A DNA stretch of 64,000 nt from Chiloscyllium plagiosum. Its lineage: Eukaryota. The notes below the pieces were generated by a model that saw only the letters and a program-made list of their open reading frames with translations, did no database searches and was not told the origin of the DNA. Shown one piece after another: positions 3,900 through 64,000 of the stretch. Location: positions 1,687,930 to 1,751,929 of the forward strand of contig NC_057753.1 in assembly GCF_004010195.1 (NCBI RefSeq). The letters are read 5' to 3'. The first letter of the stretch is position 1. Each line of letters begins with the position of its first letter. The translations under genes and the position numbers were made by a program.

Positions 3900-6800
3900 G
3901 TGTTCTAAGTGATATATTACATTATTGTCACAAGGTTTCCCTGTTTCTATTGTCCATTCCCTGTGATAAAGACCAATATCTCAGTCACCTTCCTTCTTTT
4001 CTATTAAACATATATGCTAGCTTGTGTTATTTATGCACTAGAAGCCCCAAATGCTTTTGTGCTGCAGTCATTTTAGATAATAGCGTCTCCATTCTTCCGC
4101 AAAACCTATTTTCTACATTATCTTCCTTCTATCAAGTTATTGGCACACACTTAACCTGTCTTTATTTCTCTGCAGACGTTTTGCATCATTTCCCCACTAG
4201 TTTTTCTGATAACATATTCACTTGCCTCATTTATATCATAAATACATATTGGAAATAATTGTTGTCCCAGTACTGATAGGTGTGATATTACACTAGTTGC
4301 GGATTTCCATCTTGAAAATGCTCCTCTTTAACCAAACTCTATTTTGTATTAATTAGTCAATCTTCCATCCATGGAAATATCCGACGTATCCATGGTCATC
4401 TCTTACTAAGTAATCTTACGTGCAAGACATCTTGAAACAACTTTTGGAAATTCAGCTATGTCACATGTCTTAGCCCTTTATCGTCCTGCTTGCGATATTC
4501 TCATGGAATTATAATAAATCTGTCGAGCATTGTTTCTATTTTGATGAAGACACGTTGAATCAACTTGAACAGATTATGCATTTCTAAGTAGACTGCAATT
4601 GCGTCATTCGTAACATGTACTGACATTACTCTAATGACACATTTTAAACTCACTGATTTGTTTTTGCTTTCCTATCCTTTAGGACGTTTCCAGAAAGGAA
4701 GGAGTCTTGAAAGTTTTCTACCATTGTCTTTTAAGATATTTCATTTGACGTCTTCGGACACAATGCATCAAGTTCAGTGTACCAATTGGCTTTCAGCCCA
4801 ATTAGTTTCCAAAGTAATTTTTTCTACTGGTGATTATTGCATTCATTTCCTCGCCCACCTTTATCTATTGAGTATTTTGCAATTAAAATTCTGATCGTGG
4901 TTATTTGTATGCATGGCTCACTTCCGACCCCGACCACTCCACTTCACCTCAGACACTTGTTGAGATTTTCTGGAGGACTACTATGAGGTTTTGATAAGAC
5001 CGTTTTTCATTCTGATGAAGCAGCATTGCAGTATAATAACATACCTGTACCTGTGTCACCAAAAGTGCAATTTGGACTCACATAAAAACATGTTTAGAAA
5101 AATTCAATAAAATCGTTAAAAAATCATTACTGCTACATTGACCACAACTTCAAAATGCAGAACATAAGCATGATCTTATTGACTGGTCGAACAGGCTTGA
5201 GGACCTGAATGATCTATTCCTGTTCCTTTGCCTATTCTCTTCTGCTGATTCATATGCCACGCTGCAGTAGTGCTCGCCTTCTGCATAAGGAGCTAACGGT
5301 CAGGAAGGGAAATAACTTCAAATGCCTGCCTTTGGCCGATATGTATGAGGAACGGCGTTCCAAACCCGTAGTATTCTTTCCAAGTAGAAATGCTTTCTCG
5401 CATCACTTTTGAATGCCATGGTTCTCGTTCTCAGTCTGTGGCGCTTAGTTATAGATTTTCATCCAGTGTAAATAGTTTATGTTTATCTGTCCTGTCTTTT
5501 CCTGCTAACACCTTGGAAACCCTGATGAGATCACTACTTTACCTTCTAACTTTTAGGGAAGGCAGGCCTAATTTGTCTGATGCCTGAACTTAGTTTAACC
5601 CTTGAAGTCCAGCTAATATCACTGTAAACCTACCTTGAACGGCCTCCAAGGCCAAGACATCCTCCGTAAAGTGCGGTGCCCAGATCTACTCACAGTACTC
5701 TGCGTGGGCGATAATTCGGATTTTGTATAACTATAGCGTAGCATCTGCACATCTGTATCCTTTCATTGGATCTCTTTAGATATGAAGGTCTGCATTACAT
5801 TCGCCTTCTTGACTGTTATCTGTACCTGTTCATGGCATTTCAGGAGCTTTGCATCGAACCCCACAAGTCTCAGTGGACATCTACTACATTTAATTTTGTG
5901 CCTTCTGAAAAATATCCTGATGTATGCAAAAGCCAGCAACACATGGCCTTTTTAAAAGAAAACTGACACACACTACTTTTGACAAAACGTCATCACTCTC
6001 AACACAGGTTCCATGAAGGGGTGAGCTCAAAGTTAATCTGTTGCATGCTTGGCTCCAACAGTCTTTACATCTCAAGTGATAGACACTATGTATGATCCTT
6101 TGAGATGTAATAATACAGTGAGTGAAATCTGAATGAAAAAGAAGTGTTCAATATTAAATTATTCTGTTGTCACAGCATACATTGCACAATAGCCACGACA
6201 GTTCCACCAGCTAGTCGTTTCTGCACTCCTGTAGCATAAGGCTACAGTTTTCAGATTCATATGCAACAAGTTTGTTACCTCCGTTTTGTGGCTTTAGCAA
6301 CCCCACACTCGCTATACATACATCCCACCCTTTGTTGCACTCACTTTCCCAACTTTGTGGATTTCCATCCTTCTAGCCTGACAGCTCTGTTTCACATTCC
6401 ATGCCAGCCACCTATAAATTTTGACTGCCCGACTATCTCCAATGTTCCTAAGTGTTTCTCCTTATTTTCTCACTTCTGCACCAATTGCAGGTTGCTTGTT
6501 TCTCAAATTTGTTGATGATAGCATCGTCACAGATTCTGTCCATTCTACTACCTTTCCTTGATTGGCTGTCATCATGATACACTTTTGTTGGGAATTCTGG
6601 TGGCTTTCAGTGATGAATTTTCCCACCCCTAAAATGTGGTTTCACTGTTGCAAACCAATTGCTTTAATGGGGTGCATTCTTAAAACCTGCTGTATGACCA
6701 TTGGTCAATTTGATTGTTTCATTTACAATTTCGAAGACTCCCTGCAATTTTATAAACAAATCGTTATAGTAAATATGCTCTCTTAGTCTGATTGTTTTTA

Positions 6801-7700
6801 TCATTTGCAAATCGAACATAAATTGTTACCTGCAGAAAATATCATTGCTTACGTGAGAAGATGTCCGCAGATCCCTGAAAGGAGTCAGAAGCAAAGATAT
6901 GCAGAACAGCAGAGATCTTAACCACAACATGGCTAACTGTTGCGTCACCATCCTCGTTGAGCAAGGATGATGTTAATTTTGTTGTCTGTACTATTCAACA
7001 AGTTCTAAATCAGAAGTTCATACGAGGGCTGCAGTGGTTGGTACCATGCTGCCGAGAAGGTCAAAAGTCGGAAAGTACAGGTAAAATGAAAGAAACTTCC
7101 AAATTGACCTCTAGGTTTTTGAAAATTATCTCGAAATGATCTCAATTACAGTCTGAGCAAGACCTCTGAGCCAAATTGTTTAACATGTTTCAACGTTTTC
7201 TACCTGAATTTCATAGCCATATCCAACTCATTACAGCACTCCCCCTGGCGACACTGGTGAGTTTCAGACAACGTTAGAAACTCCAATAAGAATACGGTTG
7301 ACTTAGAATTCAAGTTCTGTTAACAGCCTTTTGGCATCCTTATTCTAACCTGTCTGTACCACTGGACTAACCGACCTTGAAACGTGCATCAGTTCATGGT
7401 TTCATGTCACAATATTGATAGCTTTACCATCTTTAAATCCTTGCACCTACTGTTCTGTTAGCAATGATTAGAAATTGCTGTATCGACATTTGTAACGGAA
7501 GAGGTCTTGTAAACGTCTCACAGTGTGATTATGTACTTGAGTACTCATGATAATAGAACCCAATGTAAATCCAATTTTTTCATCTGCAAACGTTGAAGTT
7601 ATAACCATATTATTAATATTTATTACAACAGCAGCAATGCGAATGCCTATGTAAGTACCACAAAATACGTCCCTTCAATCTGTAAAGAATCGAGTCACCA
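3900..7700. repeat. Segmental-duplication block (upstream flank of copy 0), paralogous to ~36400-41600 and ~55300-57650
   Basis: Shared anchors in the same order, e.g. gagattttctgga at ~4962/37468/56401 and ggagycagaagcaaaga at ~6881/40887. Confidence 0.75.
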
Positions 7701-16610: not shown

Positions 16611-16629
16611 AACTAAATCATGCCTTTAA

Positions 16630-19600
16630 TATCTGCTCGGAAAAAAAAAACATATACCAAGTGGCTCTTTTCCATGAGCTCTGTGTTAATAAGAGAGCCA
16701 GAGAATAAGCGGGAAATGCAATTGAATTCCTTTAGTTCAGAAATGGAGAGAAATGAGCGATAAAGCCTCAGGCGATCTGGAGAAACTAGAGATGAATGTG
16801 GAGGATGTGGTAAACTGATATTGGTAGAGGTTGTGGTAATACTGATTTCAAGCTCAACCCCTGAATAAACCTCACTGGTCCTGTGTTTGCAGCTCCAGGA
16901 TTTTATTTTTCCTGCGATCACCCCAGGTTCTCGTTGCTATCTTTGCTCCACAGGTATCACAATGTTTGCCTAACTGTCTTGGTTACGAATATATACCTTG
17001 CTCTGCTCGTCATAATCCACGCACACAAAAAAAACCAAACTTGTGGAAATGTTGAAATGGTCTAATTGGTACGTCAGGTACAATCGGTGAACCCCTGTGC
17101 AACTGCTGAAATAACCCGACTGCAATCCAAAAGGTAAATGTTAATACAGACTATTCCACATCAATCCCACAATTTCATGTCAACGTTGCTACTTCACATT
17201 TATTTCATTAACTCCAATGATTTACTGACCTGACTCTTATCGAGAAATTTATTCGATCATTTTCTCCATGTTCGTCAGGTCAGTTATATCACTTTCATGA
17301 GAATTATGCTACCTTAACAAAAATAACTCGGGCAATCCTGAGAGACCAGGACTCAATGAGTAAATCAATGCGACATTCCTGAATTAAGAAAACATTGTCC
17401 TCATGGCTGTTACCTCTTTACCAAAACAAAATCTTCAATTGAGGCGTAGTAACCAGTCTATAGTGCTACTATTAAACTTTCATTTATGTTTAATGCAGAC
17501 TTAAAATGATTTTCCAGGAACTGGAGTGCAAATGCGTGAAATGACTAAATTACATTTCCCACTCATAGAATGATCGAACCTCAACAGTGCGGGAGCAGCC
17601 ATTCCATCCTTGAAGTTCACACTGACTCTCCAAAGATCGTCCCACCCAGACCTGCGCCCCTACCCTATCACGGTAACCTTACATTTCCCATGGGTAATCC
17701 GCCAAACCTGCACATTCATGGGCACTCCGTGTAATTTAGCATGGCCAATCCTCCCAACCTGCACATCATTGGACATTGGGGGGAAACCGGATTACCCAAA
17801 AAAAGGGCGCAGAACCGGGGAAAAATGAAAATTCTACATAGATAGTTGTCTGGAGATGGACTCGAACCCACCTCCCCGGCTTTGAGGTAGCTGCCCTAAA
17901 CATTAAGCCAACATGTCAACCCATCCAGGTTCGATGATCAACGATAATGGCTTCTATAATTAATCCCATTTCAGAAGATATAAACTCCAAATCACGAATG
18001 TTGATCGATACCTGGATTAGTAAGAAAGATTAGTCAGTCTGTTGGTATTGTAGAACTGTAAAACATCATCCTCGTTTAAAAATTGAGATGTGAGCAGAAT
18101 ATTGTGGAGATACTCAATGGCGTCAATAGTTTTAGTGGAGGCAGAATTTGGTTCACCTTTCAGGCCTGTGAGCAAGTGAGGGGCATCTGGGAAAGGATGC
18201 AAGGTGAACATGGCAAGATGAACAAAATTGAATGTGAGTGATATGGTGGGTGGAGGGGGTAATTAAGTGAGAAAAGGTGAAAAGAATTGGAGCTGTCAAG
18301 ACACAAAAGATGTGTCAGCATGACGTATGAATGCAAATATTCACTGTCAAGAAAATCATAGAGAAACGAGAAAGTAAAATAAAGTCAAAGCGAAAGACGA
18401 ATTAAAATGGGACAGAAATTAAATTATAAAATGCTTAAATGCTTGAACTTTGACTTCTGAAGGCTGGCTATTGCCCCCTATTATTCACCAGTTCAGAGCT
18501 GACCAGCTAACTTTATTTTTTCCCTCTGCAGCAGTACAGCACAGATCAGGAGGTCACTGCCCTCGACTCACCGCCCTGTCTCCACAGAGATTGACATTGC
18601 ACTGTCCCACGTCTGGGCAGCACTGGGTAAACAGTCAGGAAGCTGCTGGTTGGTAGGTTGCACGTTTCTACTCATCCAGGATTGGTTAATACACAAACCA
18701 GGCTATCATCTGACTTGAAAGTTCACGCATTAACTTATACTTGCAATGCTTGCAGATGGTGCGATTGAGCATTTGGGGATTCCATCCAATTCTTTTTCAT
18801 TTATATACATTTTGAAAGCTTCATCCCTGCCTCTCTCACCTCTCCATTTCCTTCCATTATTTACAAGTGCTGCCTGGTTCTCTCCCACGAATGGCGTCAG
18901 TGACTTAGTTTGGTTTATAACGATAAACCCGCAGCTTCCATGGTCATTTTTTTCATCTCAGTGCCAGATCCACATATTACCAAATTCACTCCCTCGATTT
19001 CACAACTAGTTTGTGATTTAGATGATTGTCGAGCAATGTTTCTTTTGGTGATACATCAGGTTCACAGGAAATTAGCGAGGTGTATTTGCAGTCAGGAAAC
19101 TCAATAGAAACATTGTGGCACAGTAGAATCACTGGCATACTCTCTCTTTCTTGCAGAAAATAAAGTTAAAATAAATTTAAGGGAGCAGTGCAGAACCAGC
19201 ATGGCCTCTCGCCAAAAAACTGTATTGAGGGATATTACAAATCACTTTTATGACTTTTGGTGTTACTGACAACATTGAGTATCGTTATAATGTATAGTTT
19301 CATACAATTGTTAGAACCAACATCATTATACTACTTTGAGGTGAGGTTATATGAAAAATTGAGATAGTGGGACCAGACATCTTTGCTTTCACCACATTAT
19401 CCTTCTTGAATAACTTCTTGCCATTTAAATTTAATGTTATTCTGAATAACTACTGGTGCATTTCCAGGGACTGCCGATCACAATACAGACGGTAAAGCTG
19501 GAGAATTAAACAGCACAGCCCAATGAAGATGATATGCAAGAGTGAATAGAAAACAAATGCATGGAAAATAATGTCGAACTAAAATTGTATTTTACTGTGA

Positions 19601-19630
19601 TTTATGTGATTTTCATATGTTCACTAAATA
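16630..19630. repeat. Downstream flank of GPCR copy 1, paralogous to ~29400-32190, ~48750-51370 and, in part, ~61630-62490
   Basis: gagccagagaataag-like anchor at ~16694/48803/61677; atttcattaa at ~17202/29966/49311/62130; ttttactgtgatttatgt at ~19590/32162/51336. Confidence 0.8.
17565..17920 (-). mobile_element. Degenerate HE1/V-SINE
   Basis: aatttagcatggccaatcctcccaacctgcacatcattggac matches the reverse of the SINE at 237-551. Confidence 0.72.
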
Positions 19631-21410
19631 AATTAAGCACTAGTGTCGAGTGGGATTTCTCCAATCTCTTTCACTGCTGTCTAAATTTACTGGGACCCTG
19701 CATAAATAACTGGATTGATGCAGGAACTCAAATAAGAAGGATCGACCTATCTTCCACAAGAATAAAATTTGTAACTTGAATCTGAGAAACAAATCACATT
19801 TGCAATATGAACACAGAGAAAATTCAGTGGAAGTGACAGAAGGAAACTAACCGAGATGGCAAAGAGTAAAATATAGAACATAGAACAATACAGCGCAGTA
19901 CAGGCCCTTCGGCCCTCGATGTTGCACCGCCCTGTCATACTAATCTGAAGCCATACACTATTCCATGTACGTCCATATGCCTGTCCAATTACGACTTAAA
20001 TGCACTGAAGCTTGGCGAATCTACTACGGTTGCAGACAAAAAATTCCATAACCTTACTACTCTCTGAGTAAAGAAACTACCTCTGACATCTGTCTTATAC
20101 GTATCTTCTACCTAAAGTTGTGTCTCCTCGTGTTTGCCGTCCCCATGCTTGGAAAAAGGCTCTCCCTGTCCACCCTATCTAACCCTCTGATGACCTTGTA
20201 TGTCTCTGTTAAGTCACCTCTCAACCTTCTTTTCTCTAACGAGAACAGCCTCAAGGCCCTCAACCTTTCCTCGTAAGACATTCCTTCCATACCAGGCAAC
20301 ATCCTAGTAAATCTCCTCTGCACCCTTTCCAAAGCTTCCACATCCTTCTTATAATGCGGTGACCAGAACTGTGCACAATAGTCCAAGTATGGCCGTACCA
20401 GAGCTTTGTACAGCTGCAGCATAACCTCCTGGTTCCAGATCTCAATCCCTCCATTAATAAAGGCCAAAACACTGTATGTCTTCTTAACAACCCTGTCTCT
20501 CTGCTCATCTGCACTCCTAAGAATCTTACCATTAGCCCAGTACTTTGTATTCCGATTACTCCGTCCAAAGCGTATCACCTCACATTTGTCCACATTAAAC
20601 TCCATTTGCCACCTCTCAGCCCAGCTCTGCATCCTATCTATGTCTCTCTGCAACCTACTACATCCTTCGTCACTATCAACAACTCCACCGACCTTAATGT
20701 CGTCCGCAAATTTACTAACCCACCCTTCTAAGCCCTCATCCAGGTCATCTATAAAAATGACGAACAGCAGTGGACCCAACACCGACCCTTCCGGTACGCC
20801 GCTAATAACTGGACACCAAGATGAACATGTTCCATCAACTACAACCCTCTGTTTTCTTTCCACAAGCCAATTACTGATCTAAACTGCTATGTCTCCCACA
20901 ATCCCATTCCTCTGCATTTTGTATAATAGCCTACTGTGGGGAACCTTATCGAACGCCTTGCAGTATTTCCATATACACCACATCAACCGGTTTACTCTCA
21001 TCTACCTTTTTGGTCACTTTGTCAAACAAAAAAACTCAATAAGATTCGTTCGGCACGACCTATCCTTCACAAAACCGTGCTGACTGTCCCTGATCAGATT
21101 ATTCTTTTCCAGATGGTTATAAATCCTATCTCTTATAACCTTTTCCAGCACTTTACCAACAACTGAAGTGAGACTCACTGGTCTGTAATTACCAACGGAC
21201 TTCTTCCATATTTCCATCTCTGGGTCACTTTGATTATTTCCATTGTTCTGGGTCTGGAGTCTCTTGCGGGCTCTACTTGCCAAAGCGATGTGCCTGACTG
21301 AAGACATTGAGCAACAAAATCAGAATAAATGGAAGGCAATAATCTAAAATTGCTACTATTCTCTCAAAAGCTACCCAACAGGGCGAGGAAGCGCATATAG
21401 ATGTAAGGCT
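19630..21410 (-). pseudogene. GPR139/142-like pseudogene fragment (copy 1): ECL2-TM5-ICL3 at 21410-21194 and TM6-TM7 at 19872-19630, split by a CR1
   Basis: SPCWVAFERIVAILDYCLPFILILLLNV..VRHIALASRARKRL..SDPEMEIWKKSV resumes after the CR1 as ILLFAISVSFLLS...LSSCINPVIYAG, with frameshifts and stops. The 5' half of the gene was not found. Confidence 0.88.
19873..21193 (-). mobile_element. Young 5'-truncated CR1 inserted into GPCR copy 1 at the start of TM6
   Basis: 251-aa RT ORF 20108-20863 ([20 protein letters not shown]); (ATAGAAC)n tail at 19873; GPCR sequence on both sides. Confidence 0.93.
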
Positions 21411-27270: not shown

Positions 27271-28729
27271 CTTTCAATCGTAATTCAAACAGTTAATTTT
27301 TGTTATCTTTCTTTTTCTTTTGCATCTAACTGAAGCTTCTCCAAGTTGAATTGTATTATAGCAATCTTCAATGATTCTGTTGGCGTTTTGAGCAAATATA
27401 AGTGCTGAGCTATTGCTATAGTTATCTCTCATTTCCTTACGGAAAGGAACAGCTCCAACTCCAGCTTTACTGCCAATTCCAATAGCTTTTCCTTGTTTAT
27501 GTTTTGTAAAACCTCCAAAGTCATTTCTTCCGTTCACAGAAAACTCCCAGTGACTGAAAGAGTCATTTCCACATCAAGCACTGTTTAAACAAGCCCACAT
27601 CAGCACCTCCAAGAAAAGGCACTCACACCAACCCCTCACTGCCTTCCAGTCCAACTACAGTATCCCAATTTGGAAGTTTAGAACAAATCCTGGACGTGCC
27701 CCCAAGGTTAAGGGCCATGCTGTTTCCCCTCAAAACATTTCAAGAAGGTAGTCCATATGCTAACGTTTCTCGGTGTTTTAGACAAGTGTTAGGTGGATAT
27801 TCCATGAGCAATGCAGCTGGCCCAACCAGGCAGTTATAAGCGAAACAAAATTTAATTGCAGTCTACTGAATGAAACATGAACAAAATACAACCAAATTTA
27901 TAATAACTTACACCGTCTGAAAACTCAGTTGAGTCCAGCACAACTTAATGATGCTGTTTCAAATACTTGCAAAAACCCCATAAACACCCCCTGGCAAAAA
28001 AGTAAAATAAATCACAGTTTCTTAGAGGAGAAATAGCAGCGATAAATTGGATCACCATGAAACATGTTCTTTGACCAGCGCCTCAAAAACAACTTCTTAC
28101 TAAAACCAAAATAACCAAAGCCCCGAAGTGGGAGAACTGCCACTCTCCTTTCATTGTACATGTGTTTACACACTTAAAAGCTCTTTCAAATAGGTATTTC
28201 CAGACATATTGGAACCTCTGGTTGTACCGTCCCTCTGATACAAAAACAAGAACAGAATAACCTCCTTGAAGAAGCAGCATTGTCACATCAATCAACTTCT
28301 GTTGAAGGAGTAACATATTTTACGTGATGTGATTTCACTGCTTTTGTACTGAGAGGCGTTTCTAATCCACAAATATTAGCTATCGCATCTGCCAGTGCGA
28401 ATGCTGAAAATATGCTTGCGGAGGGACTGGAAGTCGGAGATACTGTTTAAATATAAGGGGTTTCCCATTAAACATGGAGATGAAAGGAATGGTATTATGC
28501 AGGTTGGTTGGGCTTCAGAATAGTTTCATTGATCTATTGAATGAAAGGCTCTGTGCTGCGCTGTAATGTTTTATGTTGTAAATAAAGTGAAGGCATGGTC
28601 ATTCAATAGTTGTTCATATCACAGCTAAGTATGTTCCTGTTGAACAAGGAAGTTAATCATGATTGTGATGTTGATGTTCTACTCAGATCAGTCGTGATCT
28701 GAGGGTCATATAATTTTGCAACACGGATG

Positions 28730-29260
28730 AAGAACCTACAGACTAACTCTCCCTGCCGACCAGGTGTTCAAAATTAATCTGGTCACATTTTCCACCATTT
28801 GCTCCATATCCCTCTAAACCATTCGTATTCATTTACCCATACAAATGCCTTTTTAAATATTTTAACTTTAAAAGCCTCTAACCTCCAGGACTTTCTCTTG
28901 CAGCTCATTCCATACACACACTACTCTCTGAATGAAAATCATGCCCCTTACAGCACTTTTATACCTTTTCCCTCTCCTTATGCCTCTGATTTTGGACTAA
29001 CCATCCTGTGAAAAAAAAAGACCTTGGTTAATTACTCTGTCTATCACCTTCATGAATTTGCAAATTTCGATAGGATCACCCCTCAGACTCTAGGGCTAGG
29101 TAAAATGGCCCGAGCCTATTCAATCTCTACCGACAACTGATAGCTCCAGCCCTGGCAACAGCAATGTACATCTGTTGTGCACCATTTAAGTAATATCTGA
29201 CCGAAAGCAGGGAGAATTGAACAAGAGTATTCCAAAAGTGGCCGAACCAATGTGGTTGAA
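28730..29260 (-). mobile_element. Old CR1 3' fragment shared between array units (paralogues at ~60920-61450 and, in part, 48520-48590)
   Basis: The same truncation point and following flank, ccaat..tgaat..gagcagwctcaa, appear in three units. Confidence 0.7.
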
Positions 29261-30437
29261 TGGCTGAGCAGACTCAATTCCTTTTTAATCTGTTTATGTA
29301 CATGGTCATACTGAGCCTATGCACTCGAGTTCATGCATAAGAAGTGGACATTTAAATAAAGTGTTAAACATTGGATTGAATTCAACTAAGCCTTTGATTT
29401 ATGCTTCGATATAAAAAAGAATTACCAAATGGATTCTTGTAAGGACCTCAGTTCAAACAAGTGGGCCAGAGGTGAAACAGGAAAAGTGATTGAGTTCAAC
29501 TTATTTCACAGGAGAGAAATGAAGAATGAAGCGTTGGGAGATCTGCATACATGCTGGAAATGTGGGTGGAGGATGTGGTAACACTGGTCTAAGCTGGAAA
29601 ACCCAAACTAATCTTCCCTGGTCAAGTGCTTGAAGCTCCACGATGTTTATCCCCCTGGGATCACTCCAGGATCTCAGCTGCCATATTTGCTCCACAAGGA
29701 TCAAAATGCGTGCCTACCTGTGTCGTTCCTGATTTATTTGTTGATGCCCTATTCATAATTTACAAGAACACCTCCAAGTTTCTGGAAATGTAGACATGAT
29801 GCTTTGTTCATCAACGTCAAAGTCTTGAATGCTTATCAGGAACAAGCTATAAATCTTCGTGGGAATCCCAATGTAACTCCCCTTTTGTCAAAAACATAAC
29901 TGCGAATGACAACTACTTCATGTCAGTCAGATAATTTCGTGTCAATGTTAATAGTGCCACTTCTATTTCATTAATTCCAGTGATTTTTGCACCAAATCAT
30001 CATGCAGCAACTTATTAAGTTATTTTCTCTACTTTCTTCCCATCAATTGTATTACTGTCTTCAACATTTTGTTACGTCAACAAGAAATGATATGACAAAT
30101 TTCGGCAGATGATTTTCCTTCAGTGCATCTGTGCACTCATTCCTGTATTCACAACGATTTGTCCAAATGGCTGTTAACTGCTTACCAAATTATCATTTCT
30201 TAAACATTTCCTTCTATGGAGGTGAAACTAATCAGCCTTTCGTGCTGTTGTTACATTTTCATTGATGGTGAATGAAGATTCAACATTATTTGTCAAGACC
30301 TACAATGTAAATGAGTGAACTGACAAACTTGCAAATTCAACTAAATGACAACTGATAAAGATCTCGATAATTGATCAAATGTCACAGGATATAAACTGTC
30401 AATCACAAATGGAGATTTGTAAGTGAATTACTAATGA

Positions 30438-30641
30438 AAATCAGAAACAAGAACAGATGTTACTGGAAAAGCTCAGCAGGTCTGGCAGCATCTGTGAAAA
30501 GAAAACAGAGTTAAGGTTTCGGGTCCAGTGAATATTCCTGAGAACTCGAACGAGAAATTCTGATTCTATCTCTGATTTCTTTTCACAGATGCTTTCCGAA
30601 TTGCTGAGCTTTTCCAGCAACTTCCGTTTTTGTTTCTGATT
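30438..30641. mobile_element. Palindromic Penelope-like terminal element specific to copy 2
   Basis: aatcagaaaca..ctggaaaagctcagca..gcatctgtgaaaagaaa mirrored by tttcttttcacagatgc..tgctgagcttttccagca..tgtttctgatt. Absent at the equivalent sites of copies 1 and 3. Confidence 0.75.
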
Positions 30642-39950: not shown

Positions 39951-40064
39951 AATCCAGGTTCTCTGAATGGGTGAGGTCACAGTTAATTTGATGCGCTACA
40001 TGTTTGTGTGAAACAGTGATTACATTTTAAGTATGATGCTTTGAAATGTAATAACGCATTAATT

Positions 40065-47952: not shown

Positions 47953-50900
47953 CTTATCAAATGCCTTACTGAAATCCATATAGACTACTTAAACTGCCCT
48001 GCCCTCGTCAACATTCCTGGTCATTTCATCAAAGAACATTAACAAATTTGTGAGACATGATCTCCCACTCACAAAGCCATGCTGACTATTCCCAATCAAA
48101 TCCTAACTTTCCAATTCATGCATATCTTATCCCCCAGAATCTGCTCAAGTAACTTACCCAACGCAAATGTTAAACTTGCTGGTCTATTGTTCCCAGGCTC
48201 TGCGTTGCAGCCTTTCTTGAATAATGGCACGAAATGTGCTCTCCACCAGTCGTCCAGGATCTCACCCATGGCTACCGATGATGCAAAAGTATCCGCCAAG
48301 GCCCCCTGCAATTTATTGTCTAGCATCTTGCAGTGTTCTTGGATATATCTGTTCGAGACGAGGAGATTTATCCAAATTCATTCATTCTAATACACCCAAC
48401 ACCTCCTCTACTGTGATATGGACTGTACCCAAGACATCAGCAAGATATCCCCAAGTTCACAAGTCTTCACGCCTTTCTCCATATTAAACACAGAGGAGAA
48501 GTATTCATTCAGAGCCATGTCAAGTTTAACAACATCTTTTCTTTAGCAGGAAGAATTTGACACAGTATTCCAAAAATGGCTGAACCAATCTTGCTGAATC
48601 ACTGAGCAGACTCAAAGAACTGAATTGAATATTCCAGATTCTTATTGGTATGTTATATGCATTGGCATACTGAGACGATCCACTCTGGCATACGCATAAG
48701 CAAGTTTATATAAAGGGTTAGACTTTTTAAGGGAGGCCTTTGATCAATGCTTGGAAAACATTAACAAATGGTTCCTTATGAGGAACTCAGGGCCAAGAAG
48801 AGAGCCAGAGAATAAGTGGGAAAAGTGACTGATTTTATCTTATTTCAGAGAGGGGGAGAAATGAAGAATGAAGCATGGCGAGAACTGGAGAAAAGTGGAG
48901 GTGAATGGGAAGGATGCAGTGACACTGGTTTTGTCAGTCCAAATAAATCCTCCCCGATCCTGTGTTTGCAGTTCCGGTATTTTTTCCATGGGGTAATTCC
49001 AGGTACTTTGGAACGATCTTTACTCCAAAGGGATCACAATGCATGCCGCATCGTCTCAGTTTTTGATCTAATTCTTGTTATCCCTATCGTAATTCACAAA
49101 AAGGAAACATTTTCAAGCTTTTGGGAATGTTGCCATGGTGCCTTGTTCATCGATGTCAAAGTCGTTAATGTATGTCAGGAAAACCTATGAACCACAGTGG
49201 AACTCCTGAAGTAAACCTCCTCTAAACCAAAAGATAACTGTTATTGACGACTATTTCATGTTAATCAGAGATTTCAAACATTTTATGTCAATGTTGCTCC
49301 TGTCACTTCTATTTCATTAACTTCAGTGATTTTTCCACCAGATAGTTATAAAGCAATTTATTTAATAATTTTCTCCATGTTCATTACATCAATTATATAA
49401 CTGTCATTAACACTGTGTTACGTTAACAAATCATGACACAGAAAATCTTGGGAGATAAATTAGTCTCAAAACATGTGTGCAAGCTTCCCTGAATGAATGA
49501 ACATATATACGAGTAGCTGTTAACTATTTAACAAATTACCTTGTCGAAAACGTTTCCTTCTACCAAAGCTAAACTAACCCAACTCTGGTGCTACCTTTAA
49601 CCTTGCATTGATGTTCAGTGAAGATTTAATAGTATTCGCCAGGAACTGTGATGTAAATGAGTGAAGTGATTAAATTCTAATTGCAGTTGAATGACAAATG
49701 ATAAAGAACTGGATAATTAATCAAAATTCACGGGATATAAACTACCAATCACAAATGGGGATTTTTAAATGAATGACAAAGGAAGTTCCTTTGGCATTAT
49801 TGAATAGTAAAACAGCGTGGATATCTATAATTTGGAATAGGAGGAGAAAATGGTGGAAACGCCTAAAGGCGTTGACAGATTCAGAAGACACAGAAATTGT
49901 TTCACATTTCACGGCTCTGAGCTAGTGAGGGGGTTCAGGGAGTGGATGGAGGGCGGAGGTAGGATGATGAACAAAATTAAATTTCGGTGAAAATTGTGAA
50001 AAAAGTGAAATCATTCAAAACACAGAATATGTGTCGGCATGAGATGTGAATCGAAGCCATGAATGTAATGAAAATCATACAGGAGCAAAGAAAAGGAATT
50101 CATAGACAAAAACACCATATGAAATGGAACAGAAATTAAATAAAATAAAGTTGAACTTTGACACCTCAAGCCTGAATATAGCCTCCTGTTACGGCCAGTT
50201 CAGATGAAAGGTCACAGATGTGCTAACGTTACCTATTCCCTCTCCAGTAGTAGTGTTTAGATGAGGAGAAAACGTCACCCCTTCCCCTCCCTGCCACCCC
50301 AGAGACTTATTGGACTGTCTCACATCTGCACAGCGCTGTTTGAAGTATCAGGCGACTGCGACCTGGTAGGTTGCAAATTCCTCCTCCTCTAGTACTGGAT
50401 GACAGATAAATCAGTGTGATATGTGACTTGAAAGTTCTGGCATTCACATCCACCTGCAATATTTGTTATTCTATATGGTGGGGGTGAGCACTCTTTCCAG
50501 TTCTGGTCCAGTAACAGACATATGAGACCCTTCATTGCTGCCTGTCTGACCTCTCCATCTCTTTATGTTGCTCGCAAGTGCTGACTGGTTCCCGTCCCTG
50601 AAGGACATCAGTGAACTCGTTTGGTTAATAATGGCAATCCAGCAGTTTACATGATAATTTTGTTCCACTCAGTGCCAGCTCAACACATGACCAGATTCAT
50701 TCCCTCGATTTCACAACTAGTCTGCGGTTTTGTGGATTGTCTAACACTGTTTAGTTTAGTTTTTTGTAATAAACCATTTTTGCAGGAAATTAAAAGGGTG
50801 GATTTGCAATTTGAGGAGACTCAATATAAATTTGGCGGCACAGCAGAATTACGAGCATGCACTCTGTTCCATGCAGGAAGACGTTGGACTGAATTTAAGG

Positions 50901-51000
50901 AACCAGTACAGAACCAGCATGGCCTGCAAAATAACAGGTGTATTGAAAAATAATACAGCCTCCTTCATGATATTTAGCATCATTGAGAAATTTGCGAATC

Positions 51001-51080
51001 GCCATTATGTCCTGTTTTATACAATTCTTATATCTCAGCTGCCATTATGTCCTGTTTTATACAATTCTTATATCTCAGCT
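51001..51080. repeat. Perfect 40-bp tandem duplication
   Basis: gccattatgtcctgttttatacaattcttatatctcagct occurs twice; single copy at the paralogous sites. Confidence 0.95.
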
Positions 51081-52195
51081 CATCATAATGTTCTGAAGTG
51101 AGAATAATTAAATCTTGAGATGGTGATTCCGGAGATACCTTCGTTTTCACCACATTATCCTTCTCGCAACATTTCTTGTCCTTTTAATTACATGTGTTTT
51201 TACAAACAAGAACTGGTGTCTCTTGAGGAAATACAGATGGCGCCACAGAATGTAAAGCAAGAGAATTGAACAGCACAGCTGCATCAACATGAACATAAAA
51301 AAATGGATCGACTATCCTGTTGAACACAAATTGCATTTTACTGTGATTTATGTGATTTTCATATGATCACGATTTAAATCTTCTAAACACTAGCATCAGC
51401 GAAATTTCACTAATTTCTTTAACTGCTTTCTGAATTTACCCCGCGTCTCTGCATAAATAAATGGGCTGTTACAGGATATCAAAAGCTGAAGCATATACCC
51501 ACTTTCGTCAAGAATAAAGTTTGATTCATTGTAATTTGAACCGGAGAAGTAACTGACATTCGCAATTTGAACATAGAGGAAAATCAGGAGAACTAATAAA
51601 TATGACAGGAGGAAAGTTCCCGAGATGGCGAAGAGTAAAACAATGGACTTTCTCCGTTTTTCCATCTCCGGGTCACTCTGTTCCTTTCCATTGCTGCGGC
51701 TCCAGAGTCTCCTCCGGGCTAAACTGGCCAATAGAATGTGCCTGACAGTGAGGACATTGAGCAGCAAAATCAGAATGAATGGAATACATGGGTTGAAAAT
51801 TGCGATTATCCAATCAAATACAACCCAAAAGGGTGAGGTATAATATATTGATTTTAGGCTGCAATACCAAGGTACATTGTTAGTAATAAACAATGGTTCA
51901 TATGCAAGGTAAAAAGTGATGTTTCTGATAGAGCTCAGAGTGCAGACGGTCGCTATAATCACAGCTGCTACTTACTCAGGGCAATATTTCATTTTCATTT
52001 TTGGACAACAAATGTCAGTGAATCGATCAAAGGTGGAAGTGACAGTTACCCAGACAGATGAATCTCTGATTACTTGAATAAACATAAGTCTGCCACTGAA
52101 GACTGGGGTGAGGAATAGGAATGTCATTTGGAAATAAATGCTCACAATCGGGTTTAATATCACAGCTGTGATAATGACCAGGACATCCGTTACAG

Positions 52196-52406
52196 GAGAA
52201 AGTGAGGACTGCAGATGCTGGAGATCGGAGCTGAAAATGTGTTGCTGGAAAAGCGCAGCAGGTCAGGCAGCATCCAAGGAACAGGATAATCGACGTTTCG
52301 GGCATAAGCCTTTCTTCAGGAAGAAGAAGGGCTTATGCCCGAAACGTCGATACTCCTGTTCCTTGGATGCTGCCTGACCTGCTGCGCTTTCCCAGCAACA
52401 CATTTT
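52196..52406. mobile_element. Palindromic Penelope-derived insertion in TM2 of GPCR copy 3
   Basis: Inverted arms ~52231-52317 and ~52324-52409; 17-bp direct repeat CAGGACATCCGTTACAG at 52179-52195 and 52407-52423. Confidence 0.88.
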
Positions 52407-53094
52407 CAGGACATCCGTTACAGCCATGGCTACCAGATATCATACCAGATAACCAGGCTACAGAATAGCAATCAGCAAAAGGTTGGCTTTGCAAAAACGG
52501 TATATGAGAGTGAATACATGATATCAACAAATGTAGTTGTAGCCAAAGAAAGACAAATAACAGACATCTGGTAATGTTCAACTCACTGGAAGCAATGTCA
52601 AAGAGAGAAAAGTGTTCAAATTTTGCCTAATAATAATTGTATCCACCTGTATAAAAAAGACTCTAATTGACAGTCAACTCTCACTGTCAGATCATACTGG
52701 CAACAGAGAGATGTCATCATTTTTATATTGACGTTGTTTCTTTCTGATTCGGTTGCAGGAAGTTCAGCCTAAACTGCTCTCGTGTGACTGGTATAGCAGA
52801 ACAGCAATCATAATCAGCCTGAGATATTGGTAAATTGAAGAAGTAGTGTCCAAAAAGCAGCAGAAGACATTTGATATAAAGAAACAAAGATTTTCGCACT
52901 GAAGCATATATCCATGAAGTGATCGCTTAAAGAGCAAATAAAACTCACTTCTAACGTGAAAGAGATCTGGCAATGCACTTAATAATGATTTGTTCATTGA
53001 AAACATTTTGTTGGTGAAATTGAAACTAATGTCCTTAAAAAGGCGAGGCATTCTAATAACGCTGGTAAAGTAAGCGTACTCTTACTGGACAACA

Positions 53095-53260: not shown

Positions 53261-53552
53261 CCTCAACACCTTTGAATTTGACCAAATTGCTGGAATGAAT
53301 ACTAGAGAAAATCATTATGAATTCATATGGACTATACTATTGATAACTGAGTGAAGGTGTATACTGAGGTGACGAAATTAGAGAATCACTTAAAAATACT
53401 TTCCATGTAATAATTGACAGATGTCCTTTACCTGGAACCCCAGTAGTTGCTAGGATTGGATAATAAGTAGCAAACAAGTGCCCTTTTGGTATTCCATGCA
53501 TTTCTGTCTGAATCTGCATTTCCATTTGGTATCACTGTAGATGATAACCACA

Positions 53553-53558
53553 TTTATA
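53553..53558 (-). promoter_or_regulatory. Candidate TATA box (TATAAA) 52 bp upstream of the ATG of copy 3
   Basis: caggTATAAAtgtg on the minus strand. Same motif and spacing in copy 4 (62547-62552); TACAAA at the same position in copy 2 (34760-34765). Confidence 0.55.
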
Positions 53559-56500
53559 CCTGATGCCAGGCTCCAGGAACCCAACTGAATGCATTTCTTT
53601 ACAATAATTACTGTACATGTCGAAAGCAGATTCGACATATTTCTGCCCCGCTCATCTTCAATTTTAATAGATTTCAAAATGTATTCCTGGGGATTGTCAT
53701 TTATCTGAAGTCAAGTACGTACAGGTTCTGGTCGTTCTCATTAGAACAAAAGTGAAATGCGAAGCAGGCCGTTGGAAATATGCACAAAGCTGGATCTGGT
53801 ACACCACAATCACCTGATGAATGAGCAGCACTCACAAAGCTAGCACTTCCAAATAAAACTGTTGCACTATAAATGATACGTGATTTTGACTGGATCTGGA
53901 TGAGATGTCCTTTTCTATGAATAGGATATTTTGGAGCTGCAATATTCTGTTATATTGGAATATGCGGCTACGTATCGTTTCATGATCATTATTCTATTTG
54001 TATGATCACTGATTAGTTTCGAATCTCTCTGGAACTGTTTAACTCCTTCAGAGCAGCTGCCTGCACACGGTGTATAGGCACGTTCATTATATTTCATTTT
54101 GTGCTCACAGGGCCAGCTTATTTTTACAATTACTTTGACTGCAGACTTGATCACGCGTGAACCTTTATATTGTCTTCTGAAACATCAAGCACATCTTAAT
54201 TCAACATGCATAGTCCAATTCAGCAGGTACATAAAAGAATCGATACTTGCTGCTTTCTGGGTAATGCCTGTTCAGTGTGATTACATTTTGCATGATGGCA
54301 ATTTACCGGTGTGGGACGATGGTAGACATCATCAGAAATCTTCACGTGATGCAGATCTCCGAACACTGTCCGATAATAACTTGAAAAATCCATGCTCACC
54401 TCGGGCATTTAGTCAGGGAAGAAACGTGCACTTCAGCACAATTCATCTCAACGAGTTAATGTAATTATGAGACTGTGGAAGTAATTTTGTTTATTAGTAC
54501 TTTCAAAACAATTTGTTAGGAATATTTACATTCAGAGTTGAAAATACCCATTCAGTTCTGAGCACAGTTGCATTAAGTGTGCACTGGTTTAATTCAGCAC
54601 AATTACATTCAGCGTCCAAAGGATCAATTGAGGCCTCTTGCGTTCATTGTGTAAGGCCCAGATCAGCAGCTTGAGCTACGGCTTTTGATCAACACTGTAT
54701 CACATTGGGGAGCACGCGAGCGCATTGAGTTTCGAATGGTGAGGTGGAACGTGATAAATAGCAACAGTTGCATTTCCTGCGTGTATAAGACATTCTTATG
54801 AAGAAAGCTGTTGTTTCAGGTGAGTGCATGAAATGTACTTGGAAAAAATCTGAGGAGAGGCTGCCTGGAAGCACTGAAAAGTAAGATTCTAAATATAAAT
54901 CCGCTGACTGCTCCATTGTTCAAAGAGGTCATACATGATCTGATAATCCTCAACTTTATTTTCCTGCCTTTTTCCAAGAACCCTTGACTCTCTTATTGCA
55001 TGAAATATCCATCCCAAACTTGAATATACTTCGTTGTACAGCCTCGACAAATCACTGTGCCAATGAACTCCACAAATTCACAACCATTTGACAGAAGAAA
55101 TTCCGCCTGGTTTCTGCGTTAAATGTACACACGTCTTGCTCTGAGACTCTTTTCCATAATGAGAAAAAACCTCTGAGCACTCGATCTGCCAAAGCCTCTT
55201 TGAAATGTATATGCTTCTATAAGGTCACTTCTCATTCTTCTGAACTCCACTGTTTACAATCCGACTTACTTGATATCTCCTCGTGAGAAAATCCCTCAAT
55301 GCCTAAGATATTTGAATAATGCATCCAATTGAGTTATATTTTATCTGAAATTAGGGGACTAAACGGTCCACATTATTGTAGGTGAGGTCTAAGTGGTACT
55401 TTGCATAGATTTCACAAGATTTCTTTATTTAAGTACTCCACTCCCCGAGACAATAGAATATTCCAGTTTCGTCCTTATTATCTTTTGAACTTGTCTGCTC
55501 GTTGTCTTGTGATTAATGCACTAGGATACCCAAATACCGAGTGATGCAGATTTCTGCTGTCTGTTTAAACAACAGCATCTCTATTATTTCTGCAAAACCT
55601 CATTTTCCGCATTATACTGCATCAACTAAATTTTTGAGACTGTGTATTTCACTGGAGATGTTTTTACTCTTCTTCGTCACTTATGTTCCTGTCAATGTTT
55701 CTGCAACCACAATTACTTTCATTATTTACATCATAAATATATGTTGTAAATAATTGCATTTGCAGCACATCTCTGAGCTACTTTGCTATTTGCAGATTGC
55801 AATCTTGGAAATTTCCTCTTATTGCAACTTTGTCTTTTATTTACTTTCCACTTCTTTATCGATGTAAATGTGCGATCTACCCACAACAGGCTCTTAATAA
55901 ATAGACTTATGTGCAGGACGTCATCGAATACTTTTTAGAAATTTAGATACTTTACATCTATTAGTTCCCCTTTATCTTTCTGCTTGTTACCAACTCAATT
56001 AATTATTATTAATTTGTGAAGCATGATTTCCATTTGGGTAAAGCTATGTTCAATCAACTTGGATTCGATTGTGTACTTCCAAATATTGTGCAATTACGTT
56101 ACTTACAAGAGACTCGAACATTTTTGATAGCAAATTCTAAGCAAACTGAACTGTTGTTTAGTCACGATTTTTGTTCTCCAAACCTTTTGGATTGTCCAGA
56201 AGTAAGGAATATTGGAATACTACTACCATGTTCCTTTACCTACTTTCTTTAATATCCTAGGTACAATCAACCATGTCCAGGGAATTTATCAGCATTTGGC
56301 CAAAATATTTTTCCTATTAACTTTATTGTTGGCTTTAGTGTAAATTTACATGAAAGGAACAAACCCTCGCCCACTCACAACCCCGATGAGGCCTTTTCTT
56401 GAGATTTTCTGGAAAGCTACTGCTACGTTTTCATAAGATCCTTTCTCAATCTCACTACTCTTTCATTACATGATGCATTAATGTCATAACAATATTTAGG

Positions 56501-57929
56501 CATTTCTGTTACCAAATGGGCAGTTTGATGTCAACCAAAAGAATTATTAGAAAAAATCATCAAAATCCTCAATAATCATCACTGCTCCTTTGAGCTCAAG
56601 TTTCAAATACAGAAGGTGAGCATTAATTCAGTGCAGCATTTAAATTGGCCCAAAAGAACAGACATAGAATAAGAAGTAGACCATTCAGCCTCTTGAGCCC
56701 GCTCCTCCATTGAATAAGATCATGCGTGATCTGTGGCCTAATTCCATATGCCTGCGTTATAACTATTTGTATACCTCAGATTTAAATTTAACTCTTGCTT
56801 TTAACTATTTGTATACCTCAGATTTAAATTTAACAATTGAATTTTGATGAATCAACATTTGAGGAAGAGCTTCAATTATTCACTGCTAATGATTTCTTAT
56901 GGATTTATTGAATGGCCTGGCTCTAATTCTGAGACTTTACCCACTAGTTCCACCAGTGGAAAAATATACCTTTATATACCCTGTCTTTCCATGTCCATAT
57001 CTTTAAAACCTTAATTAGATCATCCTAAGCCTTGCAAATTCTAGGTAATGAATGCCTAATTTTTCGAAGGTGAAACCATACCTTTACCAGTCGAGGTATC
57101 ATTCCTGTAAACGTGCTGTAAACCCTGTAGGGCCAAAATAAGCTCCATAATATGTTGTGCTCAGATGTGTTCATAGTACTTTAAGTAGGATCGAACCAAG
57201 GATTTGTGTAACAGCAGAACGACATATTCACCCTGAAACTGCAGTTCTGTAGATATGAAAACTAAAATTCCATTCTAGGTCTTGACTATTTTCTGCACCA
57301 GTCCATGACACTTAAAATAGCTATGAGTCCAGAAATCACAAATCCCTTTGGCCATCGAACGAATTTAAATTTTACCTTTTATAAAATATCTGGATCTGCG
57401 CATAATTTAGGAACAAATCCTTTCTGAAAAGAAAATTGATACTACTTCTATCTGCAAAGAGTCATCACTCGAAACACAGATGCCCTAAGGAGTGGAGGTC
57501 ATAGTTAATCTGTTACATGTTTGTCTTCAACAGTCATTACATCTCAAGGGATGGACATTATGTGTGATACTCTGAGTATAATAACATATTAATTGAAATC
57601 TTCATGAACGAAAACATTTCAATATTAAATTATCCAGAAAAGACAACATTCATTATGTTAACATCCATTACATTTCCCTCTATCGAGTAGTTTCTGACCT
57701 CCTGCAGCCGTAGTCCAGAGATTTCACATTCATATGCAAGGAATTCATCACCGACGTTTTGCTGGATACCAATTGACTTTCGAGAAATATGAAAAAGCGC
57801 TCTCCTCCTTCTAAATCTTCTGCTGCTTTACAGCCGCCCAACTCTTTGCAGCCTATATTCTCTTCTTTTTGTAACACCTGTCTTCCCTTGCATTCACTTT
57901 CCCAACGATGTGGCTTTCCATACTCCTGG

Positions 57930-60639: not shown

Positions 60640-63600
60640 AGATAGTTGCGTCATCGCCACTTCTGTACACTGTGCTGGTTCTCATCCACAGATATTAGCA
60701 GCTATATTTGCCACTGTGCATGCTGAAAATATGTTTGCAGAGAGACTACAACTGTGATATACCTTTCAAACATAATATAATATAAAATCAAGCAGACGCA
60801 GGTTCATTGCCTTTATCACGGTACAGCAAAGTATGTTCCTGGTGAACGAGGAAGTCAACAATTGTTGGGGTATGCATGAATGTGGTTTTTATGTTCAACT
60901 CAGACCAGTCGTAACCTTCAGGTGATAGAGATGAACAGCATGGAAACAGACACGACAGTCCAACTTATCCATGCCTGCCAAATATCCTGTATTAGTCTCG
61001 CTCCACTTGCCAGTATTTAGCCCATATCCCTCTAAACCATACTTATTCATACCCATCCGGATGCTTTTTAGATATTGCCTGCATCAGTTCGTCTGACAGC
61101 TTATTCCATACACGCACCACCACGTGCATGAAAATGGATCCCCTTAGTTCTCTCCAAGATCTTTCCCTTCTCCGCATGGCATCTAGGTTTGGACTCCACA
61201 TCCTGGGAGAAAGACTGTTTACTCTATCCATTCCCGACATGATTTTATAAACATGCATAAGTTCACCATTTAGGCTCCGACGCTCCAGGGAAAAAAACAA
61301 ACCGTAGCTGTTCAGAGGCTTCCTAGATCTCACATTCTCCAGCCCTGGGACATCCTTGCAAATATTTTCTGCACACTTTCAAGTTTAACAACATACTTTC
61401 AATAGCAGAAAGAATTGAACGCAGTATGCCAAAAATAGCCACACCAATCTTGATGAATGAGCAGTCTCAAAGAGCTCAACAGCATAGCCGAGATTCCTTT
61501 TTGTATCTTTCTATGCATTTACACACTGCAACGATCCACTCGGTTGTAAGCTCAAGAAGTAGACATTTGAAGAACGGGTTGGACTTTGGATTGAATTCAG
61601 TGAGGCCTTTGATCTCTGTTTGGAAATAAAAAATTATACTCAATGGCTGCCTAAGGTGAGCTCGGCGCCAAAGAGAGACCAAGAATAAGCAAGAAAAGTG
61701 ATTGAGTACAACTGATTTCAGAAAGGGATAGGAATAAAGAACTAATGTTTGGGTGAACGAGAGAAATGTGAGTTGACTGAGGTGGATGTGGTTTTGGCAG
61801 TCCAAATAAGCACTCGCTGCTCCTATGTTTGACGCTCCAGGGTTTTATTTTTTCTTGGGAGCACTCCAGATTTTCAGCTGTCAACCTGGCTGCATGGGGT
61901 CACAATTGTCTTTGTTACTGATCTGTTTTATTGTCCTCAGCAAAATTCACCAATAAAGAAAAACACTTCCACGCTCCTGGAAATGTTGACATGGTAGATA
62001 ATCTACATCAGGAAAACTGATGAACCCCTGTTGAACTTCGCTAGTCCAAAAGATATCTGTTAATGGCGACTACTTTATGTCAATCAGACATCAGCATCTT
62101 TTAACGTCAATGTTGTTACTGCAACGTTTATTTCATTAACTCCAGTAATTTTCTCAGCAGACTGCTATGGAACAATTTATTAAAACATTTCCTCCGCGTT
62201 CATCACATCAATTATGTTATTGTAATCAACATTCTGTTACCTCAACAAAAAATGTTACAGAAAACCTTGGGAGGTGATGTTTCTTCAAAGTATCTGTGCA
62301 AGTTTTCCTGAATTAACAAACACCTTTCCATTGCCCTTAACAAATTACCTTTTCTAAAACTTTTCCTACGACCAAAGTTAAACTATCCAGCCCCCACAGC
62401 TTTTTTAAACGTTTCGTTGATGATGAGTGAAGATCTAATATCATTTGCCAGGAACTGTGACGTAAATGAGTGAAGTGATTAAATTACAATTACATTTCTC
62501 TGTCAAACTACAGTTGCGTATGGCACGACAGTGGTTGATATTCACATTTATACCTGATGCCAGTCTCCAGAAACAGAATTAAATGCCTTGGACTTTTACA
62601 ATAGTTACTTAATTGTAAAAAAAAGTTCTGGGATTTTTTTTCGGTTTGTCTTCAGTTTGGATGGAATAGGAATTTTATTCCTGGGCACTGACAGTGCTTT
62701 GAAGTGAAGCAGTGCAAGATGTGGTTTCCTTGATTTAAAAAAAAACAATAAGAAACCGATCATTGCAAATGTAAACAAGGATGTTTTGCATTACTCTTTA
62801 CTGTGAAAAATAAATCTTTACCTGAGATGGTCTATTTTATGGGAATATGCAGCAAAGTTTCCTCTCATGATCATTATTCAGTCTGTAGTATCAATGATTA
62901 AATCCAAGATGGTTTCAAAACCCTCTGAATCGGTATAACCACTTTAAAGCAACGGTCTGTGCACGGATTCTGGGCATGTCAATTGCATTTCATGCTGCTT
63001 TCACAGGGTCGGTTATTTTTAAAAATTACCTCCAGCGCAGACTGGACCACATGGGAACCATTAAATTATATTCTGACACGTCAACTACATCTTGATCAGT
63101 TTAAACTGAACATGCCCAGGTCCAATTCAGCAGTTATGCCAGAATTGATATTGGCTGCTTTCTGCCGAGACACTTAGAGTGGTTACACCCTGAGCAGTGT
63201 GATTACATTCTGCATTGCTTTATGTCTGCACAAGACCATGTGAACTTGTGTGTTTTCACAAGGGCACTTGCGTGGTGCGGAGAGAGGGTAAATCTCTTCA
63301 TTGACCAGCCACGCACTAGGTGTTAACAAGGCTAAATTAAGCGTAGACAGGCTCATTCAGTATTCTCCAGCTGCAAAAGGACAGTTCATTGTCCTCATCG
63401 GGGTGCATTTCGTCAAGGAAGAAAAGTACAGACGAACATAATTCATTTCAACATAGAGAGAACCGTATTAACAAGTTAGTGTCATTGTGAAACTATACAA
63501 GCGAATTTGTTTGTTAGTACAGTGACAGCAACGACTTGTGAATACTTCCATTCAGTGATGAAAATTTACGTTCACTTGTGAACACAGTTACATTCAGTTT

Positions 63601-64000
63601 GCACAACTTCATTTCAGCAAATTTATATTCAGCATACGAAATGATGGATCGAGGACACTTGCCTTCGTTATGTTAGGTCCGGGTGTGTAGTGTGACCTTC
63701 AGCTGTTAAAAAAAGATTATAACACTTTGAAGATCACATGAGCGCATTGAGTTTGAAATGATAAGGTGAAGTGTGGTACAATGCCAATGGTTACATTTCC
63801 CGTGTTTGCAAGACATACTCGGAATGGAAGCTATTGTTTCAGGTGACGTAACTGAAATGCACCTGGAAAAGATCTTAGGAGAAGCTTGAGAAGGACAGAA
63901 GTAAATAACATTCGATACAAAACCTATTGAATGTCCTACTATTCAATCAAATCAAATCTATTCTCAAGTCCATTCTCCTGCCTTTTGTCCAGAATCATTG
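60640..64000 (-). pseudogene. GPCR unit copy 4: both flanks present, coding region deleted at ~62493
   Basis: 61660-62490 aligns with 48790-49685 (downstream flank) and is joined directly to 62493-63900, which aligns with 53499-54900 (ATG and upstream flank). Confidence 0.8.

Follow-up and report, generated by a model that had tools for sequence, protein, structure and literature searches.

A large clustered family of rhodopsin-like receptor genes, related to but separate from GPR139 and GPR142, in Chiloscyllium plagiosum

What kind of receptor is encoded by the repeated and partly ruined genes on one contig of Chiloscyllium plagiosum, how did the copies become so numerous, and what might they serve? 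We analysed a stretch of 64,000 nucleotides (G000:C44:1687930-1751929, hereafter the window), for which a first-pass annotation had proposed a tandem birth-and-death array of receptors akin to GPR139 and GPR142. Comparison of the window with itself (self-BLAST) found the predicted collinear diagonals between five units on the same strand, with long common non-coding flanks in collinear blocks of 0.2-2.5 kb at 63-75% identity (E 1e-12 to 0). As that annotation had claimed, one unit (B) holds an intact gene and three (A, C and D) have been inactivated in different ways; a fifth (Z) is present in the window as flank only. The common flank is partly old repeat sequence, copied together with the unit. 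In window coordinates, unit B reads as follows.

28621..32195, minus strand: 3' untranslated region and downstream flank, with a candidate ATTAAA signal at 32000-31995
32196..33103, minus strand: intact exon 2, from the middle of transmembrane helix 1 (TM1) to the stop, placed by Pfam and alignment
33104..34638, minus strand: phase-1 intron, GT..AG, 1,535 nt, with its acceptor at the same codon as in true GPR139
34639..34708, minus strand: exon 1, 70 nt (23 codons and 1 nt), placed by alignment
34759..34765, minus strand: TATA-like box (TACAAA variant) about 55 nt upstream of the ATG, a putative promoter element
34766..37888, minus strand: upstream flank, collinear with Z, C and D

The two-exon splicing that we infer for gene B is supported by a whale shark model (P0003), which has the same length (325 amino acids) and the same N-terminus. 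The only Pfam match of the product at E<=0.001 is 7tm_1 (E 2e-16), and its predicted structure has seven helices and a hairpin in the second extracellular loop (ECL2), with a predicted local distance difference test score (pLDDT) of 86.7. Foldseek matched this model to class A receptors, the nearest folds being peptide receptors, and singled out no subfamily; GPR139 chains rank 19th and 45th among the peptide receptors. Across the family alignment D107 and R108 are each conserved at 99%, N294 and Y298 at 95%, and C83 and C162 at 98%, so that the DRF and NPxxY motifs and the TM3-ECL2 cysteine pair are all kept. Pro6.50 of the CWxP motif, which is not needed for class A membership, occurs in 5 of 59 family sequences and is Leu in B. 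On the Pfam match, fold, motifs and cysteine pair, gene B and its family are class A (rhodopsin-like) G-protein-coupled receptors (GPCRs), and would presumably couple to G proteins.

The array extends well beyond the window. We read 664 kb around it, with unbroken coordinates and 13 kb of N; no family member lies in the first 74 kb. Between 1.522 and 2.102 Mb (580 kb) every gene is on the minus strand, and the array comprises 15 intact two-exon genes (322-338 amino acids, each with ATG, GT and AG), about 17 broken or remnant units, a count that is approximate since two are flank only, and one open exon from another subfamily. The proposed birth-and-death array is thus borne out. The gene of unit Z is among the intact ones (325 amino acids, G000:C44:1676443-1678981, 9-11.5 kb to the left of the window). 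Each of the 15 intact local genes has a TATA-like box about 45-60 nt before its ATG (TATAAA in nine, TACAAA in five, TAAAAA in one), and in most local genes a motif resembling TGGC(A/G)TCA is conserved directly upstream of the box (window 34766-34775 in B). A 26-bp upstream satellite was not found within 4 kb upstream of these 15 genes.

Part of this array was duplicated as a block. A twin of the block bounded by Z and the gene at 1.768 Mb lies 97-119 kb further right and is about 80% identical to it, and in a tree of exon 2 the genes Z, B, C and that at 1.768 Mb each pair with their own twin (bootstrap 100). The fates of the twins differ: Z and B are intact and their twins dead, C is the reverse case, and the fourth pair has kept its two copies intact. 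A duplication of an A-B dimer to C-D, at which self-comparison offsets of 32 kb had hinted, was rejected, as the exon 2 tree has no A-C pairing. We suggest that tandem copying, probably by unequal crossing-over, multiplied units of 10-30 kb as well as multi-unit blocks; that copies would then die by retroelement or other insertion, deletion or point mutation; and that purifying selection would keep the survivors, with the outer surface diversifying in at least one young subfamily. The ends of exon 2 show short tandem re-duplications at G000:C44:1676215-1676415 and 1822731-1822998, and a 3.7-kb duplication (96%) lies beside gaps at G000:C44:1774533-1782139; the latter two may be assembly artefacts.

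The family is far larger than this array. A TM3 motif has 1,360 exact matches in the genome, against none for the reversed control, and it undercounts the family, because no more than 9 of the 15 intact local genes contain it; paralogues are therefore many, not few. Two non-overlapping motifs in the first intracellular loop (ICL1) have 559 and 543 matches, the 559 belonging to a subfamily that we call C8-type, and an exon 1 motif that includes the splice donor has 783. No stop interrupts 118 of the 131 best matches to B or 108 of the 130 best matches to L025, a C8-type gene, which puts the second exons observed without a stop at 226 or more. In a non-random sample of 40 stretches around the first 100 listed places (contigs C2-C8), 42 motif matches comprised 13 open, 20 broken and 9 cut by gaps; applying the open fraction of those free of gaps (13/33) to 1,360 extrapolates to roughly 500 open copies genome-wide. 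The family has over a thousand loci and likely several hundred intact genes. Allelic redundancy was rejected as a source of the C8-type count, as none of 378 pairs exceeds 97% nucleotide identity.

First exons of C8-type genes were not found in the 10-kb stretches upstream of ten loci, and motif positions suggest longer introns in this subfamily. On G000:C8 between 0 and 21.6 Mb the exon 1 motif has 88 matches and the exon 2 motif 32; on that contig some 11-58 kb separate the nearest same-strand pairs, and unplaced contigs carry many of the C8-type second exons. The imbalance probably reflects long introns and a gappy assembly, with surplus first exons as the alternative. The intron of L025 carries a minisatellite of about 65 bp and shorter repeats, roughly 1.0-1.6 kb upstream of the TM3 motif; such repeats are common to C8-type copies and vary in length.

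The assignment to GPR139 and GPR142 did not survive. A GPR139 proper is present in the genome; its protein shares 95% and 93% identity with shark and ray GPR139, 85% with a human sequence and 23% with gene B. In maximum-likelihood trees of 49 of 89 assembled sequences and, in a second tree, 37 sequences, GPR139 and GPR142 fall in one clade (100/100), and a second clade (93/97) holds an amphioxus gene (P0265), two low-copy lineages of vertebrates that have matches in the C. plagiosum genome, and the expansion; no placement in another known GPCR family occurred. The approximately unbiased (AU) test, run with fast constrained searches and 5,000 replicates, rejects the family with GPR139 (p 5e-5) and with GPR139 and GPR142 together (p 6e-4). 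Judged from these sequences, the family is a lineage separate from GPR139/142, though related. Within the expansion, whale shark P0003 nests in the window's own subfamily, and a Callorhinchus sequence nests among shark members with moderate support; the expansion therefore likely began before chimaeras and elasmobranchs split.

The relationship to GPR139 is visible in two ways. GPR139/GPR142 is the nearest relative of B by sequence among solved structures (human GPR139, PDB 7VUG, E 4e-6) and belongs to the same wider lineage, and the acceptor of the phase-1 intron in TM1 stands at the same position in L021 (GPR139), L062, L063, L071, L066, L025 and B. Unlike GPR139, which has none in the alignment, the family has the TM3 and ECL2 cysteines; Pro6.50 is absent from most of its sequences, N7.38 and R6.51 are not conserved in it, and its more than a thousand loci contrast with a single genome match for a GPR139 motif. 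Activation of GPR139 by Trp or Phe is reported to need F3.33, H5.43, W6.48 and N7.38 (PMC5430874). Gene B has Y, I, Y and T at these sites; in the family, His5.43 occurs in 21 of 59 sequences, Trp6.48 in 39 of 59, and Asn is outside the five commonest residues at 7.38. Because the site is only partly kept, aromatic amino-acid sensing should not be transferred to the family.

How, then, did such genes come to bear the GPR139 name? A protein search with B yielded 1,723 clusters (E<=1e-10). Sharks or rays are the named source of 119 among the 120 best, for which 'probable G-protein coupled receptor 139' is the usual title; other automatic names among the relatives, in sharks, rays and Callorhinchus, are 'GPR15-like', 'capa receptor-like' and 'sex peptide receptor-like'. 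The 'probable G-protein coupled receptor 139' models of RefSeq and UniRef belong to the same family as B (up to 85% identity, 325 amino acids), and their 'GPR139' names are automatic only; members of the family are already in RefSeq, but under a misleading label. The closest proteins are from whale shark and zebra shark (84-85%), with divergent members in catsharks, skate, stingray and Callorhinchus. None of the 14 intact neighbours of B (75-81% identical to it) is among the best 120 matches, and they seem to be absent from the protein sets searched.

The expansion is not without kin outside cartilaginous fishes. A word-seeded search found an amphibian counterpart, one cluster per species in 20 amphibians, and a sturgeon one too, and no amniote or teleost match for the amphibian type. 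The low-copy 'GPR139-like' genes P0234 (salamander), P0401 (Xenopus) and P0417 (sturgeon) join the expansion at 100/100; placing the amphibian gene as sister to the expansion versus nested within it gave an AU p of 0.47. The next relatives are the lineages of P0221 (coelacanth) and P0269 (anchovy), each with a single best match in the C. plagiosum genome. The lineage-expanded repertoire of cartilaginous fish proposed at first pass is supported; the counterpart in amphibians and sturgeon qualifies it. Three low-copy GPR139-like genes, L062 (G000:C26:36.60 Mb), L063 (C98156) and L071 (C27:2.29 Mb), lie outside both GPR139/142 and the expansion; two have bony-fish counterparts, and the trio resembles unnamed vertebrate orphan receptors.

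We found no paper on this family in sharks or under GPR139-like names, and a term search of the main texts of shark genome papers returned no mention; we regard it as undescribed, although a subscription journal or a supplement may mention it. The present analysis contributes a map of the array, the history of its twin blocks, the counterpart in amphibians and sturgeon, the poly(A) evidence and the contrast in selection between subfamilies, to which we now turn.

The subfamily of the window is under purifying selection: among the 15 local genes the ratio of non-synonymous to synonymous substitution (dN/dS, omega) is 0.26 by counting, at a dS of about 0.5, and 0.37 by a custom codon model. The C8-type subfamily (dS about 0.12) behaves otherwise. 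In 28 of the 30 best L025 matches (one with stops and one unparsed were dropped), twice the log-likelihood difference (2dL) between models M2a and M1a is 493, or 330 with multi-nucleotide changes allowed, and 13 sites have an omega of about 8-10. All 13 fall in the extracellular class, which covers 34% of positions, was taken from a structure model and was defined after the selected sites were known; omega is 1.15 on the extracellular face and 0.37 elsewhere. These codon models show strong diversifying selection apparently confined to the extracellular face. Transcription and polyadenylation are seen in part of the C8-type subfamily: at one of its loci, reads of single-cell run X5 lie along exon 2 and pile up on one strand past the stop, and 17 reads end in a poly(A) tail, at a position 23 nt downstream of ATTAAA in genomic sequence that is not rich in A. 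Runs X6 and X8, one of them a second run of the X5 sample, gave no reads there. For gene B, no RNA run was listed as matching exon 2, and runs X5, X6, X1 and X7 gave no spliced read and X6 none at all, which is uninformative either way.

What might so many receptors do? We put the chance at about 0.45 that the intact copies form a chemosensory repertoire, by analogy with known ones. The receptors would differ in the external molecules, probably peptide-like, that they detect, and would signal through a G protein, the peptide-like character being suggested by the fold, the ECL2 hairpin and the lineage; subfamilies may differ in role. This reading ranks first because of a parallel with nematode srw receptors and a mismatch with the small olfactory families of sharks. 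The srw chemoreceptors also expanded from the myosuppressin/FMRFamide receptor group (PMC2576165), and they and the FMRFamide-receptor-like genes of Lymnaea (about 450) are large expansions from a neuropeptide-receptor group reportedly kin to GPR139 (PMC2576165, PMC11589774, PMC12208981). These and the shark expansion are likely independent. Unlike srw, B has no match to Pfam Srw (PF10324) at E<=0.001; GPR139 clusters and some Atlas neighbours carry PF10324.

Many clustered paralogues with birth-and-death turnover are a chemosensory-type hallmark, and in its clustering, many pseudogenes and lineage-specific expansion the family resembles OR, TAAR, V1R and V2R genes. Cartilaginous fishes are reported to have 6-13 OR, 3-5 TAAR, 2-4 V1R and 8-43 V2R genes (PMC10116579), sets that the family far exceeds in size; matching only Pfam 7tm_1, B is set apart by profile from these four families and from T2R. 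More tentatively, cartilaginous fishes would possess a further chemoreceptor family, by far their largest, with several hundred intact members from a peptide-receptor lineage beside GPR139, sparsely expressed in sensory cells. If the receptors are chemosensory, they would account for an acute chemical sense in animals with only a few dozen OR, TAAR, V1R and V2R genes. The ancestral ligand could then be approached through the amphibian gene, of which each species has one, and the Xenopus counterpart makes laboratory tests possible. Shark genome papers describe a paucity of GPCRs (PMC8455134) and very small olfactory families (PMC10116579), and the family under the 'GPR139' label changes the shark GPCR count whatever its ligand.

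Several observations weigh against a chemosensory role. No tissue, cell type or ligand is pinned to the family; the coding region of gene B has a few partial reads in run X5, on both strands and none on exon 1; and the list of top-50 brain and olfactory-epithelium genes of a catshark (PMC11979771) is without a GPCR. In the window's own subfamily omega is 0.35 in the extracellular third against 0.38 elsewhere, and M2a improves weakly on M1a (2dL 16), with sites mostly in ICL3 and the C-terminus. The site-wise dN/dS proposed at first pass thus gave a divided answer, with strong extracellular diversification in the C8-type subfamily and none locally. The 28 C8-type genes are the best matches to one query and hence a non-random set, gene conversion can inflate their site tests, which were unscreened for recombination, and the selected sites, mainly on loops and helix tips, fit immune receptors equally well.

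That last point leads to the strongest rival, in which leukocytes or epithelia would use the receptors to recognise microbial or parasite peptides, working like formyl-peptide or Mas-related receptors. An omega of about 8-10 on the outer face of a young subfamily has the look of an arms race, and the C8-type subfamily alone accounts for 559 motif matches. The window's subfamily, however, is conserved on its outer face, with whale shark genes nested inside it, and no immune-cell expression was seen; we think innate-immune or barrier sensing possible but rather unlikely. Receptors for internal signals, be they endogenous peptides, metabolites or cues of gamete or self-recognition, would suit the peptide-receptor folds, the neuropeptide receptors reported in the wider lineage (PMC12208981) and the conserved amphibian counterpart. 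A family of hundreds of rapidly lost copies does not resemble the stable families of peptide receptors, an argument also made in PMC2576165, and we consider this reading improbable.

A further step down in probability is the idea that the numbers mostly reflect genomic drift, with repeat-rich blocks duplicating, redundant copies decaying and few receptors mattering. About half of the units are dead, and three of the four twin pairs with a survivor kept just one intact copy after the block duplication. Against this stand an omega of 0.26-0.37 over 15 intact paralogues at a dS of about 0.5, the conserved splice sites and TATA-like boxes, and the confinement of C8-type selection to the outer face, by which drift is already weakened. 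That the family consists of amplified L-Trp/L-Phe sensors of GPR139/142 type we regard as very improbable, since the best solved-structure match, the common intron position and the partly kept His5.43 and Trp6.48 are opposed by the separate clade, the 23% identity and the four substituted activation sites of B.

Returning to the window, the remaining units document how copies are lost.

3674..6288, minus strand: unit Z, far upstream flank of the intact paralogue, 65-69% identical to the upstream flanks of B and C
16622..19619, minus strand: unit A downstream flank, collinear with the flanks of B, C and D at 63-66%
19620..19877, minus strand: unit A, frameshifted 3' remnant of exon 2 from TM6 onwards, 79% to B
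19873..21192 (widest bounds 19866-21197), minus strand: retroelement inside unit A exon 2, Pfam RVT_1 E 5e-12
21193..21410, minus strand: unit A, middle remnant of exon 2 (TM5, ICL3), 77% to B
48520..51369, minus strand: unit C downstream flank (self-BLAST)
51370..52486, minus strand: unit C exon 2, broken by a TAA at 51974-51972, small deletions near the 5' end and a 1-nt deletion near the 3' end
52179..52423 including repeats, no strand assigned: insertion in unit C exon 2, 211 bp, largely palindromic (52196-52406), with 17-bp direct target-site repeats
53432..53501, minus strand: unit C exon 1, open, with ATG and GT donor
53502..57761, minus strand: unit C promoter and upstream flank, collinear in self-BLAST
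60823..62490, minus strand: unit D downstream flank (self-BLAST)
62491..63913, minus strand: unit D promoter and ATG region; about 4.4 kb is gone directly after the ATG, including the whole coding region

Unit A retains only the 3' half of exon 2, frameshifted and in two pieces around the retroelement; searches for the 5' half of exon 2, exon 1 and the promoter gave no further matches. In unit C the TAA is in frame. Related copies of the unit A retroelement lie elsewhere in the window by self-BLAST, and decayed reverse-transcriptase retroelements also occur at window 9030-11357, 22994-25624 and 38531-39951. A second short palindromic repeat element, at 30439-30641, belongs to a high-copy family. 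Opposite-strand matches within the 664 kb read cover about 24 kb of the window, and the flank of unit C contains a perfect 40-bp tandem duplication at 51001-51080.

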